Shown here: positions 1-7,494 of the stretch, piece by piece
Layout: the number at the start of each line of letters is the position of its first letter
Numbering within the stretch: position 1 is the first letter of the stretch
Origin: Chitinophagaceae bacterium
GTDB taxonomy: Bacteria > Bacteroidota > Bacteroidia > Chitinophagales > Chitinophagaceae
Assembly: GCA_035626515.1 (NCBI GenBank)
Contig: DASPNM010000017.1
Coordinates: forward strand, 77,399 to 141,398
Direction of reading: 5' to 3'
DNA: 64,000 nucleotides
Position numbers and translations under genes: made by a program
The notes under the pieces: model-generated
What the model was told of the DNA's origin: nothing
Database searches by the model: none
Seen by the model: only the letters and a program-made list of their open reading frames with translations

Positions 1-937
1 CTCCGCTGATAATACACACTATGTTTTTTCCCCTGATGACATCTGAAAATTCGTCAAGCGCCGATAGGGCCATCGCCCCGGCGGGCTCCGTTACGATAGC
101 GTCGTCGTTATACAGTTTTAATATCGTTGAACAAATTTTTCCGTCCGGGATGATACACATCTCGTCAACCACATCCCTGCAAATGGAATAAGTAAGCTCT
201 CCCACTGTTTTAACTGCCGCACCATCCACAAAGGTTTCAAATTTGTCCAAAATCACCGGCCTTCCTTTCTTGAATGCCTGGTACATGGCGGGAGCCCCTT
301 CCGGGTTCACCCCGATAATTTTCGTTTTCGGGGAATACAGTTTGCAATACGATCCCACTCCTGCAGCAAGTCCGCCCCCGCCAACGGGTACAAAAACAAA
401 ATCAGGATTTGGGTGTTCATCCAGGATCTCCATTCCAACTGTTCCCTGTCCTTCAATAATAAGCGGGTCATTGAAAGCCGGAATTTCTGTCATTCCATGG
501 TTATCGCCATACCTTTTCGCAGCGGCGGCGCATTCGTCATAATTATCACCCGTAAGTCTGATTTCCACAAATGAGCCTCCAAACAGACGGGTCTGGTTAA
601 TTTTCTGCGCAGGCGTGATGAGTGGCATAAAAACAATCCCTCGTGCGTTCAGCTTCTTACAGCTGTAGGCAAAACCCTGTGCATGGTTGCCGGCGCTCGC
701 GCAAATGACCCCCCGGTCCAGCTCCGCCCGGGTCAACGAGCTCATCATATTATAGGCGCCGCGCAATTTGTAGGACCGAACAACCTGCAAATCTTCCCTT
801 TTCAGGTACACATTGCACTCATGTTTTTCGGAAAGACCTGCATGGTGTTCCAATGGGGTTTTCCTTGCAATACTTTCAAGTCGCCTGGCTGCACGCCGAA
901 AATCCAGGATCACAATGTCTTCATTCAACTTCTTCAT
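1..937 (-). CDS. ilvA: Threonine ammonia-lyase (threonine dehydratase), 5' portion; gene continues past the left window edge
   Basis: Not in the ORF track because it is open at the window edge. My translation of the minus strand from ATG at 937 gives MKKLNEDIVILDFRRAARRLESIARKTPLEHHAGLSEKHECNVYLKREDLQVVRSYKLRGAYNMMSSLTRAE...ICASAGNHAQGF. This contains the PLP-lysine motif SYKLRGA and the GNHAQG motif typical of PLP-dependent Thr/Ser dehydratases. It overlaps the ilvC stop by 17 nt, so it is the last gene of the ilv operon. Confidence 0.85.
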   Translation of the reverse strand, partial: MKKLNEDIVILDFRRAARRLESIARKTPLEHHAGLSEKHECNVYLKREDLQVVRSYKLRGAYNMMSSLTRAELDRGVICASAGNHAQGFAYSCKKLNARGIVFMPLITPAQKINQTRLFGGSFVEIRLTGDNYDECAAAAKRYGDNHGMTEIPAFNDPLIIEGQGTVGMEILDEHPNPDFVFVPVGGGGLAAGVGSYCKLYSPKTKIIGVNPEGAPAMYQAFKKGRPVILDKFETFVDGAAVKTVGELTYSICRDVVDEMCIIPDGKICSTILKLYNDDAIVTEPAGAMALSALDEFSDVIRGKNIVCIISG

Positions 938-1988
938 ACATATTATTTTTCTCGGGTCTTAACTTTCTCACAGTCTCTCCTGCTCTCCAGAGCTCGCTTT
1001 GTCTCAGCTCCTTCAGTTCAGAGTCCAGTTTTTCCCGGTAATCGGGCTCGCTATTGGCTTTGATCACCTTTGCAGTCTCTTTTCCACTCGCCACGCTCTC
1101 ATAGAGTTCATAGAATACAGGCAGGGTCGCGTCCCTGAACTTCTTCCACCAGTCGAGAGCGCCGCGCTGCGCCGTCGTCGAACAATTCGAATACATCCAG
1201 TCCATGCCATTTTCTGCTACCAGGGGCATGAGCGATTGCGTAAGCTCTTCAACTGTTTCGTTAAAAGCTTCCGATGGAGAATGGCCTTTTGATCGCAATA
1301 CCTGGAATTGCGCGGCAAATATCCCCTGCACCGCTCCCATTAGAGTCCCTCTTTCCCCGACCAGATCACTAAAAACTTCTCTCCTGAAATCAGTTTCAAA
1401 CAGATAACCGCTGCCGATCGCGATTCCGAGTGCAATTACTCTTTCAAAAGCTTTGCCGGTCGCATCCTGGTAAATGGCGTAGGAACTGTTCAACCCCCGT
1501 CCCTGCAGAAATAGTCTTCTGAGCGAAGTGCCCGAACCTTTAGGAGCCACCATAAAAACGTCCACATCTTTTGGAGCAATGATCCCCGTTTGATCGTTGA
1601 ACGTTATTCCGAAACCGTGGGAAAAATATAATGCCTTACCCGGCGTCAAATATTTTTTGACCGTTGGCCAAAGTTTGATTTGCGCGGCATCTGATAAGAG
1701 ATAACAAATAACTGTCGCGCGCTGCAACGCACCTTCAATGTCAAATAAGGTGTCTCCGGGAACAAACCCGTCCCTGACTGCCTTGTCCCAGGATTTCGAT
1801 TTCGGACGCTGCCCGACGATCACATTAATTCCATTATCCCGCAGGTTCATTGCCTGCCCCGGTCCCTGCACGCCATAGCCGATAATCGCCACCGTCTCAT
1901 CTTTCAAAATCTCCCTGGACTTGTCCAGCGGAAATTCATCACGTGTGACGACATTTTCCGGCGTGTCTCCAAAGTTCAGTGTTGCCAT
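921..1988 (-). CDS. ilvC: Ketol-acid reductoisomerase (class I)
   Basis: 355 aa ORF. N-terminal Rossmann motif IIGYGVQGPGQAMNLRDNG and overall KARI-like sequence. ATG confirmed at 1988. Confidence 0.95.
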   Translation of the reverse strand: MATLNFGDTPENVVTRDEFPLDKSREILKDETVAIIGYGVQGPGQAMNLRDNGINVIVGQRPKSKSWDKAVRDGFVPGDTLFDIEGALQRATVICYLLSDAAQIKLWPTVKKYLTPGKALYFSHGFGITFNDQTGIIAPKDVDVFMVAPKGSGTSLRRLFLQGRGLNSSYAIYQDATGKAFERVIALGIAIGSGYLFETDFRREVFSDLVGERGTLMGAVQGIFAAQFQVLRSKGHSPSEAFNETVEELTQSLMPLVAENGMDWMYSNCSTTAQRGALDWWKKFRDATLPVFYELYESVASGKETAKVIKANSEPDYREKLDSELKELRQSELWRAGETVRKLRPEKNNMYEEVE

Positions 1989-2008: not shown

Positions 2009-2257
2009 TTATTGTGTTTGGATAAACAAGCTTACGTCCATTACGTCCACCTGTTTTTCTATCTGCTTTGACAATTTCTGAATCGTATCTATGTTTTCTC
2101 TGACCGTGATCAGGAACCGCTGTCGTTTATCTGGTGAAATACTGATGGCCTGCAGGCTGTCGATCGGGATCCTTCTGCGGGTGAACAGGGAAGCCAGCCT
2201 GTTCAGCGTAGTAGGATCACTTCCTGCATTGATCTGTATGATAAATTGCTCTTTCAT
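2009..2257 (-). CDS. ilvN: Acetolactate synthase small (regulatory) subunit, short ACT-domain-only form
   Basis: 82 aa ORF immediately downstream of ilvB (6 nt gap). ACT-like sequence (LNRLASLFTRRRIPIDSL). Position is typical of the AHAS regulatory subunit. Confidence 0.7.
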   Translation of the reverse strand: MKEQFIIQINAGSDPTTLNRLASLFTRRRIPIDSLQAISISPDKRQRFLITVRENIDTIQKLSKQIEKQVDVMDVSLFIQTQ

Positions 2258-2263
2258 ATAAGT

Positions 2264-3985
2264 TTACTTAAGTCTCACTTCGTTTACGGCACAGCCCTGG
2301 GGTATCATGGGAAAAACATTTTCTTCCTGTTTCACCGGCACTTCGAGCAAAAAGGATCCTTTATGGTGAATCATTTGTTTGAGCGCTGCTTTTAATACGG
2401 AGCGGTCCGAAACTTTCGCACCTGCGATCCCGTACGCTAACGCAACTTTCACATAGTCGGGGCTCGAAATATCTACGCAGGAATACCTTTTTTGATGAAA
2501 TAATTCCTGCCACTGCCTTACCATGCCCAAGAACCCGTTGTTCAGGATCACAATCTTAATATCCACGCCACATTGCATGATCGTACCCAATTCCTGTATT
2601 GTCATTTGAAACCCGCCATCCCCGATGATGGCGATCACCGTCCTGCGGGGCGCGCCGTATTTCGCGCCTATGGCAGCAGGCAATGCGAAGCCCATCGTGC
2701 CCAACCCGCCGGAAGTAATATTACTTTTTGAATAATTATATTTTGCATAGCGACAGGTCACCATCTGGTGCTGGCCTACGTCGGTGACAATGATCGCTTC
2801 GCCCCGAACCAGTTCATTCAGTGTTTTGATCACCTCTCCCATAGTTAGTTCCGGATGAACCGGATTCTGTTCCGGCTGAATACAGATTTCCTCTTCCTCC
2901 ATCCTGAGCTCATGAAACCTGCCGAGCCACGCTGCATGCTCCTTTCTTTCAATTAATTCCGTAAGCAGGGGGAGACTTTCCTTACAATCCCCGCAAACCG
3001 CAACCGTCGTCTTTACATTTTTATCGATTTCGGCCGCATCGATATCCAGGTGAATAATCTTAGCCTGCTTCGCATATTTTTCCAGTTTGCCTGTTACCCG
3101 GTCATCAAAGCGCATTCCGATTGCGATCAATACATCACATTCATTGGTCAGAACATTGGGTGCATAGTTGCCGTGCATACCCAGCATACCCGCCGCCAGT
3201 GGATGGTCGGTTCTGATAGCGCTCATTCCCATAATGGTCCATGCCGCGGGAATACCGCCTTTTTCGATAAACCGATGGAATTCACGTTCAGCATTTCCCA
3301 GGATCACACCCTGGCCAAAAACGACGAATGGTTTTTTAGCAGCGTTGATTATCCGGGCGGCCTCTCTTATTTTTTCGCGGTCGATTTCCGGTTTAGGGTC
3401 ATAACTATCCAGGAATTCGCATTTTTCATAGCCGTTGAATTCAAACTTTTGGAGCTGTGCGTTTTTCGTGATATCGATGAGCACAGGTCCGGGTCTGCCG
3501 CTGCGTGCGATATAAAATGCCTTAGCCAGCACAGCGGGGATTTCAGCTGCATCAACAATTTGGTAATTCCATTTGGTAACGGGGGCGGTAATATTAATAA
3601 TGTCAGTTTCCTGGAACGCGTCCGATCCAAGCAGATGGGCATACACCTGGCCGGTGATACAAACCACAGGCGTACTGTCAATAATCGCGTCTCCGAGCCC
3701 GGTCACCAGGTTGGTGCCGCCCGGCCCGCTGGTTGCAATGACTACGCCTGTTTTTCCCGACGACCGGGCAAATCCCTGTGCAGCATGAATGGCCCCCTGC
3801 TCATGTCTCACCAGGATATGGTTGATCTGGTGATGAAAATCATACAGAGCATCATAGACGGGCATAATGGCCCCGCCTGGATACCCGAATATGGTGTCTA
3901 CCCCCTCATGGATCAAAGCCTCAAGAAGGGAAACCGATCCTGACACCACTCTAGTATTCATCCGTAACGCATCCGTGGCTCGCAT
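2264..3985 (-). CDS. ilvB: Acetolactate synthase large (catalytic) subunit, ThDP-dependent
   Basis: 573 aa. ThDP-enzyme motifs ([30 protein letters not shown]). The true start may be the internal Met at 3961 (MNTRVVSG), which would remove the 35 nt overlap with ilvD. Confidence 0.95.
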
Positions 3986-5633
3986 CTTTGACAGATTTTA
4001 GATATTTTAACAACACACCTTTCCTTACGCCTGGTTCCGGTTGTTTCCACCTGCTTCGCCGTGCTGCAATTGTCGTTGAATCGACTTTTAGGGTGATCGA
4101 ATTCTTTAAGACATCAATTTCAATCAGGTCATCATTTTCAACGAGGGCAATTAATCCTCCTTCGTATGCTTCAGGACTGATATGCCCCACTACAAACCCA
4201 TGCGTACCACCGCTGAACCTTCCGTCTGTAATCAGGGCAACCGAATTCCCCAGGCCCGCACCGATGATGACCGATGTCGGTTTCAGCATTTCAGGCATCC
4301 CGGGGCCGCCCTTCGGACCTGCATATCGAATAACCACCACATCCCCTTGCCTTATTTTCCCTGAATGAACGCCGTCTACCAATTCAGATTCTGCGTCAAA
4401 CACCCTGGCCGGCCCTTCGAATCTTTCTCCTTCTTTTCCGGAAATCTTCGCAACACTTCCTTTCTCTGCAAGATTTCCATAAAGGATCTGTATATGTCCT
4501 GTTTTCTTGATCGGGTGTTCGATTGGGTAGATCACTTTCTGTTTGCTGAAATCCAGCGCAGGAATATCTGCCAGGTTTTCTTCAACGGTTCTGCCGGTCA
4601 CCGTAAGGCAGTCTCCATGCAACAATCCCTGACTCAATAAGTATTTCATCAGTGCGGGAAGCCCACCGGCAAGGTGCAGGTCATGCATTAAATAGTTTCC
4701 GCTGGGCTTGAAATCCGCAAGCACGGGTGTGTGATTGCTGATAACCTGAAAGTCGTCGAGTGAAAAATCTACCCCCACCGACCTAGCAATCCCGATTAAA
4801 TGAAGCACTGCATTGGTGCTCCCGCCTATGACCATGATCAGACGTGCCGCATTTTCAAAAGCTTTTCTGGTCATGATATCGGACGGCTTGATATCAAGTT
4901 CGATCAGATGCAGGATGGCTTTGCCGGCGGCTTTGCATTCAGCCCGTTTACTTTCGCTTTGCGCGGGATTGGAAGAAGAAAAAGGCAGGCTCATGCCCAG
5001 CGCTTCAATCGCAGCAGCCATCGTATTCGCAGTATACATACCTCCACAGGCTCCCGCCCCCGGGCAACTGTTTCTGATAATGCCCTTGAATTCTTCTTCA
5101 TTGATGGTGCCGGCCATTTTTTTACCGAGGGCCTCAAATGCAGAAATGATATCGAGCTTTTTTCCGTTAAAATGTCCCGCCTCTATGGTTCCGCCATAAA
5201 CCATCAGTGCCGGCCTGTTTAACCGGGCCATGGCCATGACGCTGCCCGGCATGTTTTTGTCGCAACCCGGCACGGCAATCAGGGCGTCGTAAAACTGCGC
5301 TCCGCAAACCGCTTCAATGCTATCGGCAATGAGATCCCTGCTCAGCAGTGAATACCGCATGCCGCTCGTTCCATTGCTCATACCGTCACTGACGCCAATG
5401 GTATGGAAAACCAAACCCACCATCTCGTTTTCCCAAACGCTTTGCTTTATTAAAGCTGCCAGGCTGTTGAGATGCATGTTGCAGGTATTTCCATCGTACC
5501 CCATACTCGCAATCCCGACCTGGGGCTTCTTAAAATCGTCGTCGGTTAACCCGATCCCATAAAGCATGGCCTGCGCTGCCGGCTGCGACGGATCCTGCGT
5601 AAGATGCTTTGAATATTTATTCAACTCCTTCAT
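3951..5633 (-). CDS. ilvD: Dihydroxy-acid dehydratase
   Basis: 560 aa. IlvD/Edd family signatures ([19 protein letters not shown]-like [14 protein letters not shown]). ATG confirmed at 5633. Confidence 0.95.
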
Positions 5634-6504
5634 TTATCTTTTTTTCCAATACTAGGTTTTGGTATTGTTTCTGGATTCTCGAACTAACCGAATCTTCCCA
5701 GTTTAATTTGAAACAAACTCCATCGAGAGATGCGAGCTGGACGATCTCGGCTGCAGTTCCGCAAAAAAACCCCGCGTCGGCTCCCTTCATTTGTTCGGGT
5801 GTAAAAAAGATTTCTTTAACGGGTATGCCCATTTCATTACAGAGTTCCATTACTGTGGCCCGCGTGATACCAGGGAGAATATTTCCCCGGGGGGGAGTAA
5901 ACAATACGCCGTCCAGCTCATAGAAAATATTCACACCTGGTCCTTCAGCGACAAAACCGTCCTGGTCAAGCAGCAAGGCCTCATCGAAACCTTTATCTTT
6001 TGCATCCTGGCAGGCAAGGATCGAGTTCACATAGTGTCCCGACACTTTTGCCTCCACATGAAATCCATTAGGATTGGGTCGCCTGAATGGGGAGGTCATT
6101 ACCCTCAGTTTGTTGGGCAAGTAGCCATTGGTCCAGTCCCACGCCTGGATAACAAGGATGCTCTCCCTGCCTTTTGATAATGACATGTTGGGGGAACAGA
6201 CAACCAAAGGCCTCAGGTATGCTTCCGTGAGGTGATTTTTTGCGAGGAGCTCGTAGCTTAGGTTTGTCAGTTCCTGTACCGTATAGTCAAACGGTATTTG
6301 CATCATTGCGGCCGAGTATGTCAACCTCTCAAAATGTTCTTTTGCCTTAAAGATCTTTGGGTCATCCCCTATGCTGTATGACCGAATTCCCTCAAATACG
6401 GCATACCCATAGTGAAGCGATTGGCTGTATAAGTCCAACCGGCCATCTGAAGCGTTGATGAAACTATTATCGAAATAGATAATCGTGTCGTTGGTGTAAT
6501 ACAT
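5617..6504 (-). CDS. ilvE: Branched-chain amino acid aminotransferase (fold type IV PLP enzyme)
   Basis: 295 aa. Class IV aminotransferase-like sequence (EGIRSY, LRPLV, GITR). First gene of the ilv operon. ATG confirmed at 6504. Confidence 0.9.
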
Positions 6505-6542: not shown

Positions 6543-6570
6543 AAAAAAAAACCCGCCCTGGGAGGCGGGT
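6543..6570 (-). terminator. Intrinsic terminator (attenuator) between the leader ORF and ilvE
   Basis: Minus strand reads ACCCGCC-TCCCA-GGGCGGGT followed by TTTTTTTTT (a 9-T run). It lies 38 nt upstream of the ilvE ATG and 25 nt downstream of the leader ORF stop. Confidence 0.7.
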
Positions 6571-6595
6571 CGCGGATAATTTTTTTAGTTTATTA

Positions 6596-6691
6596 TCATG
6601 CACCCCCTCCGGCCGTAGGAATAATGATCACGAATCCCACAATAATCGACGCGGTCAGAGCAATAACACTATGTAGCTTGTTTCTTAACAT
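6596..6691 (-). CDS. Putative ilv operon leader peptide (31 aa, Ile/Val/Leu-rich)
   Basis: My translation is MLRNKLHSVIALTASIIVGFVIIIPTAGGGA*. It has 6 Ile, 3 Val, 3 Leu and 2 Thr, including a VIII run. It is followed by the terminator above. The 3' end of the ORF (GGAGGGGGT, plus coords 6602-6610) is complementary to the terminator 5' arm. Confidence 0.55.
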   Translation of the reverse strand: MLRNKLHSVIALTASIIVGFVIIIPTAGGGA

Positions 6692-7014
6692 GGAGTGAGT
6701 GTTGAATAAAAGTAAACGAATTTTTTAAACAAATGAAGCACTGGGGGCAATAATAAGTTTCCATAGTGATTACAAAAAATAACTTCAATGATGAAAAAAA
6801 GTTAAGTACGTGAAGCGCACCGTGTTGTGTTATTATTGACTAACAAATGATCGTCTGATTTTACCGCGACCTTGTTTTATTTTCTATACCTTGAACCATT
6901 CCGCCGTTTACCCTTCTGCCGTTATTCCCTCTGAATTCACTTCATCCGGATAAGGAAACATCAAACGTTGATGAACGGAATCATTTATTTTTTAACCACC
7001 AAATAACCGATTTT

Positions 7015-7494
7015 ATGAGCAGCAAACTTCAACTGACCTTACTGGCGGTCATCGCCCTGATTATCTCCGCCTGCAACACCAAAAATGCAGACACCAAAAT
7101 CGACATGGACAAAACGAGGGCAGAAATCCAGGCTATGGAAGATGCCTATGCCGCTGGAGAAAAAGCAAAGGATGCCGACAAGGTTGTGGCATATTACAGT
7201 GATGACGCTGTCAGCTATAACCGCAACGAGGAACCGACGTCAGGGAAAAAAGCGATCCGGGACCGCACAGCAAAACGCTTGAATGAAGACACCTCCGGCA
7301 ACTACAATGTTTACAAAGTGGTTGATCTGTTTGGAAACGACAAAATGTTGGTAGAGATCGGCTCGTGGTCAGAAAAGACTTCTTCCGGTGCGGAAAAAGA
7401 CCACGGCTACTACATGTCCTATTTTGAAAAGCGGAATGGAAAATGGGTTTGTGTTCGCGACATGAATGTCAGTTCGACGCCGGCCGCAAAATAG
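7015..7494 (+). CDS. Lipoprotein with NTF2-like (SnoaL/DUF4440-type) domain
   Basis: 159 aa. Signal peptide with lipobox (LIISAC). The pattern of the mature part resembles NTF2-fold DUF4440 proteins (YYSDDAV ... KWVCVRDM). Confidence 0.6.
   Translation: MSSKLQLTLLAVIALIISACNTKNADTKIDMDKTRAEIQAMEDAYAAGEKAKDADKVVAYYSDDAVSYNRNEEPTSGKKAIRDRTAKRLNEDTSGNYNVYKVVDLFGNDKMLVEIGSWSEKTSSGAEKDHGYYMSYFEKRNGKWVCVRDMNVSSTPAAK

Follow-up and report, generated by a model that had tools for sequence, protein, structure and literature searches.

A probable leader-peptide transcription attenuator before the ilvEDBNCA operon in Chitinophagaceae

The ilvEDBNCA operon of a Chitinophagaceae bacterium (GenBank assembly GCA_035626515.1) lies on the minus strand of contig DASPNM010000017.1, in a stretch of 64,000 nucleotides (nt; contig positions 77,399 to 141,398) which is called the window here and whose own numbering is used throughout. 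The leader of this operon (6543–6691) is very probably a ribosome-mediated leader-peptide transcription attenuator that senses charged isoleucine (Ile)- and valine (Val)-transfer RNA (tRNA) and gates ilvEDBNCA. The reading is drawn from sequence comparison and RNA folding. The leader contains what is expected of a classical attenuator of this type, namely a short open reading frame (ORF) with a cluster of codons for the end products, a terminator between this ORF and the structural genes, an antiterminator which shares the 5' arm of that terminator, and conservation of the ORF in relatives. Its features, with the evidence for each in brackets, are:

6596–6691, minus strand: leader ORF of 31 codons plus TGA, encoding MLRNKLHSVIALTASIIVGFVIIIPTAGGGA (ORF table, minus-strand reading)
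6620–6646, minus strand: regulatory Ile/Val codons, the proposed ribosome stall zone (sequence, family alignment)
6600–6610, minus strand: antiterminator 5' strand, GGAGGGGGTGC, codons 28–31, Gly-Gly-Gly-Ala (folding, duplex energies, family pairing)
6575–6597, minus strand: small inner hairpin GATAAT / ATTATC, which closes the predicted antiterminator (minimum-free-energy structures)
6561–6573, minus strand: antiterminator 3' strand, GCGACCCGCCTCC (folding, family pairing)
6543–6570, minus strand: intrinsic terminator, ACCCGCCT / CCCA / GGGCGGGT plus T9 (terminator scan, folding)

The leader peptide contains 6 Ile, 3 Val and 3 leucine (Leu) residues, that is 12 branched-chain residues, as well as 2 threonine (Thr) residues, and its stop codon is TGA (6598–6596). 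The codons of the stall zone are ATT ATT GTG (16–18, 6646–6638), GGA TTC, and GTG ATC ATT ATT (21–24, 6631–6620), the Ile/Val run being interrupted by Gly-Phe. Codons 16–24 align with a run, (I)IIVVV(V)III, that is nearly invariant in relatives. The last Ile codon is separated from the antiterminator strand by 9 nt, and the equivalent distance from the last Ile/Val codon, read by eye, is 9–12 nt in the eight lineages discussed below; this is about the 3' reach of a ribosome footprint. The exact peptide has been predicted by gene finders in public metagenomes with no name attached, and when five family peptides were looked up by exact match in a public protein collection only that of the window was found, again unnamed.

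The GC-rich terminator stem of 8 base pairs begins 25 nt after the stop codon, with a 5' arm of ACCCGCC(T) (6570–6563), the loop CCCA, a 3' arm of (G)GGCGGGT (6558–6551) and T9 (6551–6543). The hairpin alone has a predicted energy of −14.5 kcal/mol, it ranks first among the terminator-like sites in the first 9 kilobases of the window, and its T-run lies 38 nt from the ATG of ilvE (6504). The antiterminator 3' strand consists of the terminator 5' arm and the start of the loop, and is therefore common to both structures. The complementary segments are GGAGGGGGT (6610–6602) and ACCCGCCTCC (6570–6561), and the ORF end pairs with the terminator 5' arm at −19.6 kcal/mol, compared with −13.3 ± 3.0 kcal/mol for shuffled sequences. 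An earlier note, made without database searches, had described the 31-codon minus-strand ORF with its branched-chain and Thr residues, which was confirmed to the base; the ACCCGCC/GGCGGGT terminator with T9 that it placed 25 nt after the ORF, the 38 nt between terminator end and ilvE, and the complementarity of the leader-end codons to the terminator 5' arm and loop all proved correct. The note considered a competing antiterminator possible, and this is the structure which the minimum-free-energy fold of the window leader selects.

The 5' strand of the antiterminator stops 1 nt short of the stop codon, so that a ribosome at the stop codon covers it. When the window leader was folded with the ribosome footprint masked, the predicted probability of the terminator was 0.97 for a ribosome at the stop codon, 0.02 for one stalled with its A site on Ile24, and 0.03 for the leader free of ribosomes. 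Transcription would begin a few nt upstream of the leader AUG, and a ribosome would translate the 31 codons as RNA polymerase advances. With ample Ile and Val the ribosome would reach the end of the ORF and cover the G-rich GGAGGGGGUGC (6610–6600), leaving the C-rich strand (6573–6561) free; the terminator hairpin (6570–6551) would then form and the polymerase would let go of the RNA at the U9 tract, giving a leader transcript of about 150 nt with its 3' end expected at about 6543–6548. With scarce Ile or Val the ribosome would stall at codons 16–18 or 21–24, its footprint ending just before the G-rich strand, which could pair with the C-rich strand once that is made; this antiterminator would block the terminator and permit read-through into ilvE. 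Within this scheme we infer the promoter, the coupling of the lead ribosome to the polymerase and the response to amino-acid supply.

In relatives the element was followed with a covariance model, R1, of 115 positions, which spans the ORF end and the terminator with the terminator as structure. It was built from the window and two relatives (alignment A2); a five-leader MAFFT alignment (A1) misaligned the terminators and was replaced by A2 and the model-guided alignments A3 and A4. Among 301 genomes of the same family, R1 found one full-length copy in 146, representing 80 of 151 genera, and a second match in one genome only. The window scores 107.3 bits as one of the three training sequences, and untrained copies score 64–113 bits. 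The window conforms to the family definition in its full-length match, its Ile/Val-run ORF ending in Gly codons and its position before ilvE or ilvD. The following gene is ilvE in 34 of 39 copies examined, ilvD in four and another ORF in one, and the downstream ATG is often 15–50 nt from the end of the R1 match. When the whole source genome was scanned for short ORFs that are enriched in a residue and precede a terminator and a gene, the ilvE locus was the only one recovered before branched-chain genes.

The leader ORF is intact in all 39 copies and is 27–38 codons long, with a consensus of roughly MLKNxINNVISxxxAIIIVVVIIIPAxHGGGx; the median is 9 for the longest Ile/Val run, 13 for Ile/Val codons and 2 for Leu. 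Homologs of the window peptide in the same family include MLQSKLHSAITIINAIIIVVVVIIIPASHGGAS, MFKSGIINIISVVIAIIIVVVVIIIPGTHGGGA and MLQTRIHNVLNLLSVLLLLVVVIIVPANGGGV. Column entropy in the ORF part of alignment A4 is 0.45 at the first codon position, 0.10 at the second and 0.82 at the third, and most of the variation at the first consists of A/G exchanges that swap Ile and Val codons. Every one of the 87 gap runs in the ORF is a multiple of three (length 3 or 6), and gaps in the linker from stop codon to terminator are of any length. Such codon-periodic variation and in-frame gaps indicate selection on the reading frame and not on the RNA alone, and suggest that the frame is kept and translated in relatives. 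The earlier note had proposed a search of relatives for a conserved branched-chain-rich ORF with its terminator, and both were found, with codon-periodic drift; every sequence-level prediction of its attenuator reading that was tested held (conservation, drift, helices and ribosome-mask folding).

Both helices are also recognizable in the family. The G-rich last codons GGAGGNGG, with the consensus GGAGGTGG, pair with CCGCCTCC in 95.8% of cells, compared with 51–76% when the partner is slid, and the terminator helix is paired in 93.2% of cells with compensatory changes at 5 of 9 pairs. The antiterminator helix GGAGGU..GG with CCGCCUCC includes two compensatory cells. In L144 (genome G121; aligned to window 6610–6561) UGAGG stands in place of GGAGG, so that the stop codon now lies within the antiterminator strand; the partner reads CCUCA in place of CCUCC, a compensatory replacement of G:C by U:A. 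The inner hairpin GATAAT / ATTATC is not kept in relatives, where the linker varies in sequence and length, and no conserved structured domain was found in the family alignments beyond the two simple helices.

Outside the family, in a sample of 400 genomes from the phylum, R1 gave weak matches only. On inspection several of these proved to be true ilv leaders whose peptides differ: MNTFFNLIIVIIIIGSQ precedes ilvE, MATNKLYTRISSAIIIVVVLLIIPILPGVS a gene resembling that of the acetolactate synthase small subunit, and MNINTNIISNLIIVISKKRGGNRCV ilvD. Inspection of ilvE upstream regions revealed a leader ORF and terminator in several lineages, with unrelated peptides in the same layout: genome G009 (...VVIIVVVIISHQYGG), Chryseobacterium (MYQLLSVIIIVIIIPLRL), Cytophagales (...RIVIVLVIIILTPTGG) and Chryseolinea (...LLIVVIILKPEGATVI). 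These four and three further families share the same logic with different sequences. For each of eight lineages, pairing of the terminal 18 nt of the ORF plus the stop region with the terminator 5' arm of that lineage has an energy of −13 to −20 kcal/mol, better than shuffles (p = 0.004–0.04), and the most divergent designs favor their own pairing partner. In Chryseobacterium species (L002–L073) the approximately 330 nt upstream of ilvE hold two full leader-ORF-plus-terminator units in series, the first with MNFTNQKNIIVISIIAVVINNRKETAF and the terminator AACCGTTTC...GAAACGGTTTTTTT, the second with MYQLLSVIIIVIIIPLRL and the terminator GAGCCCTCTCAC...GTGAGAGGGCTTTTTTT; the UGA stop codon of the second lies inside its own antiterminator strand.

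Several observations weigh against an attenuator of this kind. The Ile/Val run of the window copy is the weakest among the 39 family copies examined, with a longest run of 4 and 9 Ile plus Val codons where the medians are 9 and 13. Both helices are almost invariant within the family, so that covariation is modest and the antiterminator has only its two compensatory cells; the independent designs carry, on sequence grounds, a stronger argument than covariation within the family. Close coupling of transcription and translation is not known to occur in Bacteroidota, which initiate without Shine-Dalgarno pairing. When complete leaders are folded at equilibrium, the terminator prevails in most relatives whatever the ribosome state. 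Finally, a classical protector or pause hairpin is plausible in many relatives but is weak in the window and lacks support from covariation. In the window its best partner is in the 5' untranslated region (UTR), CACUCACUCC, at −13.7 kcal/mol, which is no better than shuffles (p = 0.36). In relatives, codons 8–12 (N-V/I-I-S-V, AAYRUCAUCUCUGU) are complementary to GGAGGUGGUG in about 17–21 of 32 copies, with 75.9% of cells paired as against 36–60% when slid, and the covariation is no better than shuffles (209/500). As the hairpin is weak or unsupported, the predicted default without translation is read-through, unlike that of the Escherichia coli trp leader. With the protector left aside, the folding models describe a two-state switch.

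Equilibrium is uninformative for a kinetic switch, and nascent RNAs extending to the terminator loop were folded instead. Across the eight lineages the terminator 5' arm was sequestered with probabilities of 0.60–0.99 with the ribosome on the last Ile/Val codon, 0.40–0.99 with the stall three codons earlier and 0.59–0.99 without a ribosome. With the ribosome at the stop codon the values were 0.03–0.61, and the direction was the same in all eight lineages. In most relatives the predicted switch rests on this kinetic, co-transcriptional argument.

It is very unlikely that the same two helices are set by an RNA-binding protein, by a small RNA or by uncharged tRNA and that the ORF is incidental. 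The two alternative helices would by themselves permit such control, coupling of transcription to translation is not known to be documented in the phylum, and the dominance of the terminator at equilibrium in relatives calls for some factor to stabilize the antiterminator. Against this, the ORF bears a coding-type constraint in its codon periodicity and in-frame indels, with start and stop codons kept in 39 of 39 copies; the stop codon is always within about one footprint of the antiterminator strand; the spacing of 9–12 nt is kept in the independent designs; and neither a T-box or other Rfam match nor a conserved structured domain beyond the two helices was detected. Nor is it at all probable, by a slightly lower estimate, that the ORF specifies a functional small hydrophobic membrane peptide whose own transcript ends at the hairpin, with ilvE separately promoted. 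The peptide does resemble one transmembrane helix, there is moderate conservation across the family in its N-terminal part (MLKNxINNVIS), and gene finders have predicted it in metagenomes. However, the 38 nt between T-run and ilvE ATG (often 15–50 nt in relatives) leave little room for a promoter, and the N-terminal conservation overlaps the possible RNA pairing segment. The hydrophobic core consists almost wholly of Ile and Val, Leu (median 2), Phe and Ala being scarce, and this composition suits regulatory codons better than a membrane helix. In other lineages the peptide sequence has been rebuilt entirely, but it still has an Ile/Val run and still lies in front of ilv genes, and its ORF end is still complementary to the terminator.

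It is scarcely credible that the main role of the leader is to boost or couple ilvE translation, through ribosome delivery or re-initiation, and not to control transcription. Short leader ORFs near genes have been proposed to act in this way in several phyla including Bacteroidetes (PMC4833913), but the proposal covers distances of about 10–14 nt from stop to start, whereas here 91 nt separate the leader stop from the ilvE start with a strong intrinsic terminator between them. The coincidence of a short ORF with an orphan terminator has practically no probability left: short ORFs are plentiful and the fold energy of the entire 216-nt region is ordinary (z = −0.44), but the comparative data at the sequence level refute it, with a single conserved copy in 146 of 301 family genomes, 38 of 39 copies before ilvE or ilvD, and only the ilvE locus returned before branched-chain genes from the 2.8-Mb genome. 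Ribosome-mediated attenuation remains the preferred explanation.

Bacteroidota initiate translation without Shine-Dalgarno pairing. The antiterminator of the window starts with an invariant GGAGG, a perfect Shine-Dalgarno sequence, in frame (Gly-Gly) and three codons before the stop codon. It is conceivable, though unlikely, that this motif is engaged by the anti-Shine-Dalgarno tail of the ribosome finishing the leader, holds that ribosome on the antiterminator 5' strand and thereby sharpens the termination decision.

The leader would be transcribed from a promoter close to its ATG. The element and the genes that follow are:

6707–6738, minus strand: putative Bacteroidota-type promoter, inferred, with a −33-like CTTCATTTG (6738–6730) and a −7-like TACTTTTA (6714–6707)
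5617–6504, minus strand: ilvE, first structural gene of the controlled operon (NCBIfam, ORF table)
3951–5633, minus strand: ilvD (NCBIfam, ORF table)
2264–3985, minus strand: ilvB (NCBIfam, ORF table)
2009–2257, minus strand: a short ilvN (NCBIfam, ORF table)
921–1988, minus strand: ilvC (NCBIfam, ORF table)
2–937, minus strand: ilvA, cut by the end of the window (NCBIfam, ORF table)

The promoter consensus of Bacteroidetes is TTTG at −33 and TAnnTTTG at −7, and TACTTTTA agrees with the latter at 7 of 8 positions. A start site near 6700 and a 5' UTR of roughly 8–12 nt are implied by this sequence. A sigma-70 promoter scan was set aside as not meaningful for promoters of Bacteroidota. Relatives (L111–L147) possess a conserved promoter-like block, AGTTCTTT(G/T)..N..GGCGGGTGTATATT(C/T)(G/A), at 20–60 nt upstream of the leader ATG, the end of which is about 15–20 nt before that ATG, and the window elements occur at corresponding places. 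In most relatives the promoter-leader-terminator unit directly follows leuB (TIGR00169) and is thus an internal control point of the leu-ilv gene string; the conserved block, which lies between leuB and the leader, implies a separate promoter for the ilv genes within this string. In the window the upstream neighbor (7015–7494) is an unrelated, divergent gene, and no other gene therefore needs the leader terminator.

NCBIfam confirmed the gene order ilvEDBNCA given in the earlier note. The ilvN product (acetolactate synthase small subunit) has 82 amino acids with a single ACT-like domain and scores below the NCBIfam cut-offs. In the source genome (G000; 2.8 Mb, estimated 100% complete) leuB and leuC had no match above curated cut-offs, and this genome seems to have retained just the Ile/Val portion of the pathway. 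The best public match of the window IlvE is in a Chitinophagaceae metagenome-assembled genome (70% identity), and after Chitinophagaceae the next matches are to about 70 Chryseobacterium species, Cytophagales and Chryseolinea.

Other leaders were seen in the course of this work. In the source genome, outside the window, contig C20 (356–415, plus strand) has a Trp-Trp ORF, MMQHSHTSWWQTSDTERGL, followed by the terminator GAGCCCCGATGATTCGGGGTTTTTTT; a gene starts 7 nt on, and its best NCBIfam match is anthranilate synthase component I, a partial sequence below the curated cut-off. By its sequence this is a candidate trp leader-peptide attenuator before trpE, which the Rfam model RF01692 misses. 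In L154 (genome G442, about 1440–1580) a Tyr/His-rich ORF, MLHSNAYYYHYYHATQARNGSRMF, and a strong terminator are followed after 23 nt by a phenylalanine 4-monooxygenase gene that scores above the NCBIfam cut-off; this may be a Tyr-sensing leader for a Tyr-forming enzyme. L151 (genome G672), from a different class of the phylum, contains the ORF MKRIIHTGNWHHHYNYFSSAGMV and a terminator directly before hisG (TIGR00070) and is a candidate his leader.

If the attenuator operates as proposed, ilv expression in these soil and freshwater bacteria should follow the supply of charged Ile/Val-tRNA. More widely, the conservation of such attenuators in about half of Chitinophagaceae would mean that ribosome and RNA polymerase are tightly coupled in Bacteroidota. 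The leader would then be a compact natural test case for the coupling of translation to transcription in a phylum without Shine-Dalgarno initiation. It belongs to a cis-regulatory element that occurs across the family in at least 80 genera and has so far not been catalogued; its short ORFs are mostly unannotated, and an alignment and a model for such a family are now available. The mechanism is textbook; the gain lies in annotation and distribution and not in concept.

Among known systems, the closest in design are the enterobacterial leaders of ilvGMEDA (ilvL; PF08046, NF007744), ivbL and leuL, which likewise have an ORF of about 30 codons rich in branched-chain codons. In ilvL, too, the terminator 5' arm alternatively pairs with a strand at the ORF end, and the operon it controls overlaps that of the window in ilvE, ilvD and ilvA. 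The E. coli IlvL peptide, which ends in ...VVVIIIPPCGAALGRGKA, and that of the window, ending in ...FVIIIPTAGGGA, have ends of strikingly similar composition. The window peptide gave no match to PF08046 or NF007744, and the peptide of a relative scored below the cut-offs of both (18.3 bits, E = 0.0017, cut-off 25; and 16.7 bits, E = 0.0038, cut-off 59, respectively). The ilvL leader differs in belonging to another phylum, in the composition of its run (Ile/Val/Leu, as against Ile/Val only in the present family) and in its upstream protector or pause hairpin, which is not established here; the family described here also lacks Shine-Dalgarno-led initiation.

Upstream ORFs rich in branched-chain codons, with Thr codons in addition, define the ilvB-OMG, ilvB and ilvB-II uORF motifs proposed as attenuators by the Breaker laboratory (PMC10272879), and a short upstream ORF with branched-chain codons is present in the Corynebacterium ilvBNC attenuator (PMC11857589). 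These ilvB-type motifs differ in their hosts (Corynebacterium, Leptospira and assorted phyla) and in their location before ilvB. An Rfam scan (E <= 10) of the ilv leader gave no family at its gathering score, be it Leu_leader, Thr_leader, Trp_leader, His_leader, Phe_leader, Bacteroid-trp, T-box or any other, and only sub-threshold matches driven by the terminator, the best being to Trp_leader (20.4 bits, gathering 41), rnk_pseudo (21.3, gathering 55) and Thr_leader (17.2, gathering 55). No Rfam, Pfam or NCBIfam model covers the element.

Within the phylum, a leader-peptide attenuator class is already catalogued as Bacteroid-trp (RF01692), the predicted Trp leader of Bacteroidetes (Weinberg et al. 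2010, PMC2864571), which differs in the amino acid sensed and the operon controlled; RF01692 had no match to the ilv leader and none in the whole source genome. The earlier note could not say whether such a leader had been described for this lineage. No published description was found for Chitinophagaceae, and in Flavobacterium psychrophilum, of the same phylum, a leader-peptide attenuation element on the ilvE mRNA has been predicted with the backing of transcriptome data (Guérin 2021, ISME Commun, PMC9723704, text D9, Table S7), along with trp, phe and his leaders. In both, a short Ile-rich ORF lies within a structured 5' region and ilvE is followed by ilvD, and the interpretation given to them is the same. 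They differ in class (Flavobacteriia and Chitinophagia) and in peptide sequence; the F. psychrophilum 5' region, of 438 nt, comes from transcriptome mapping, and the window leader is known from its sequence alone. Judged by sequence, the element is an uncatalogued family of a familiar kind, one already predicted in the same phylum.

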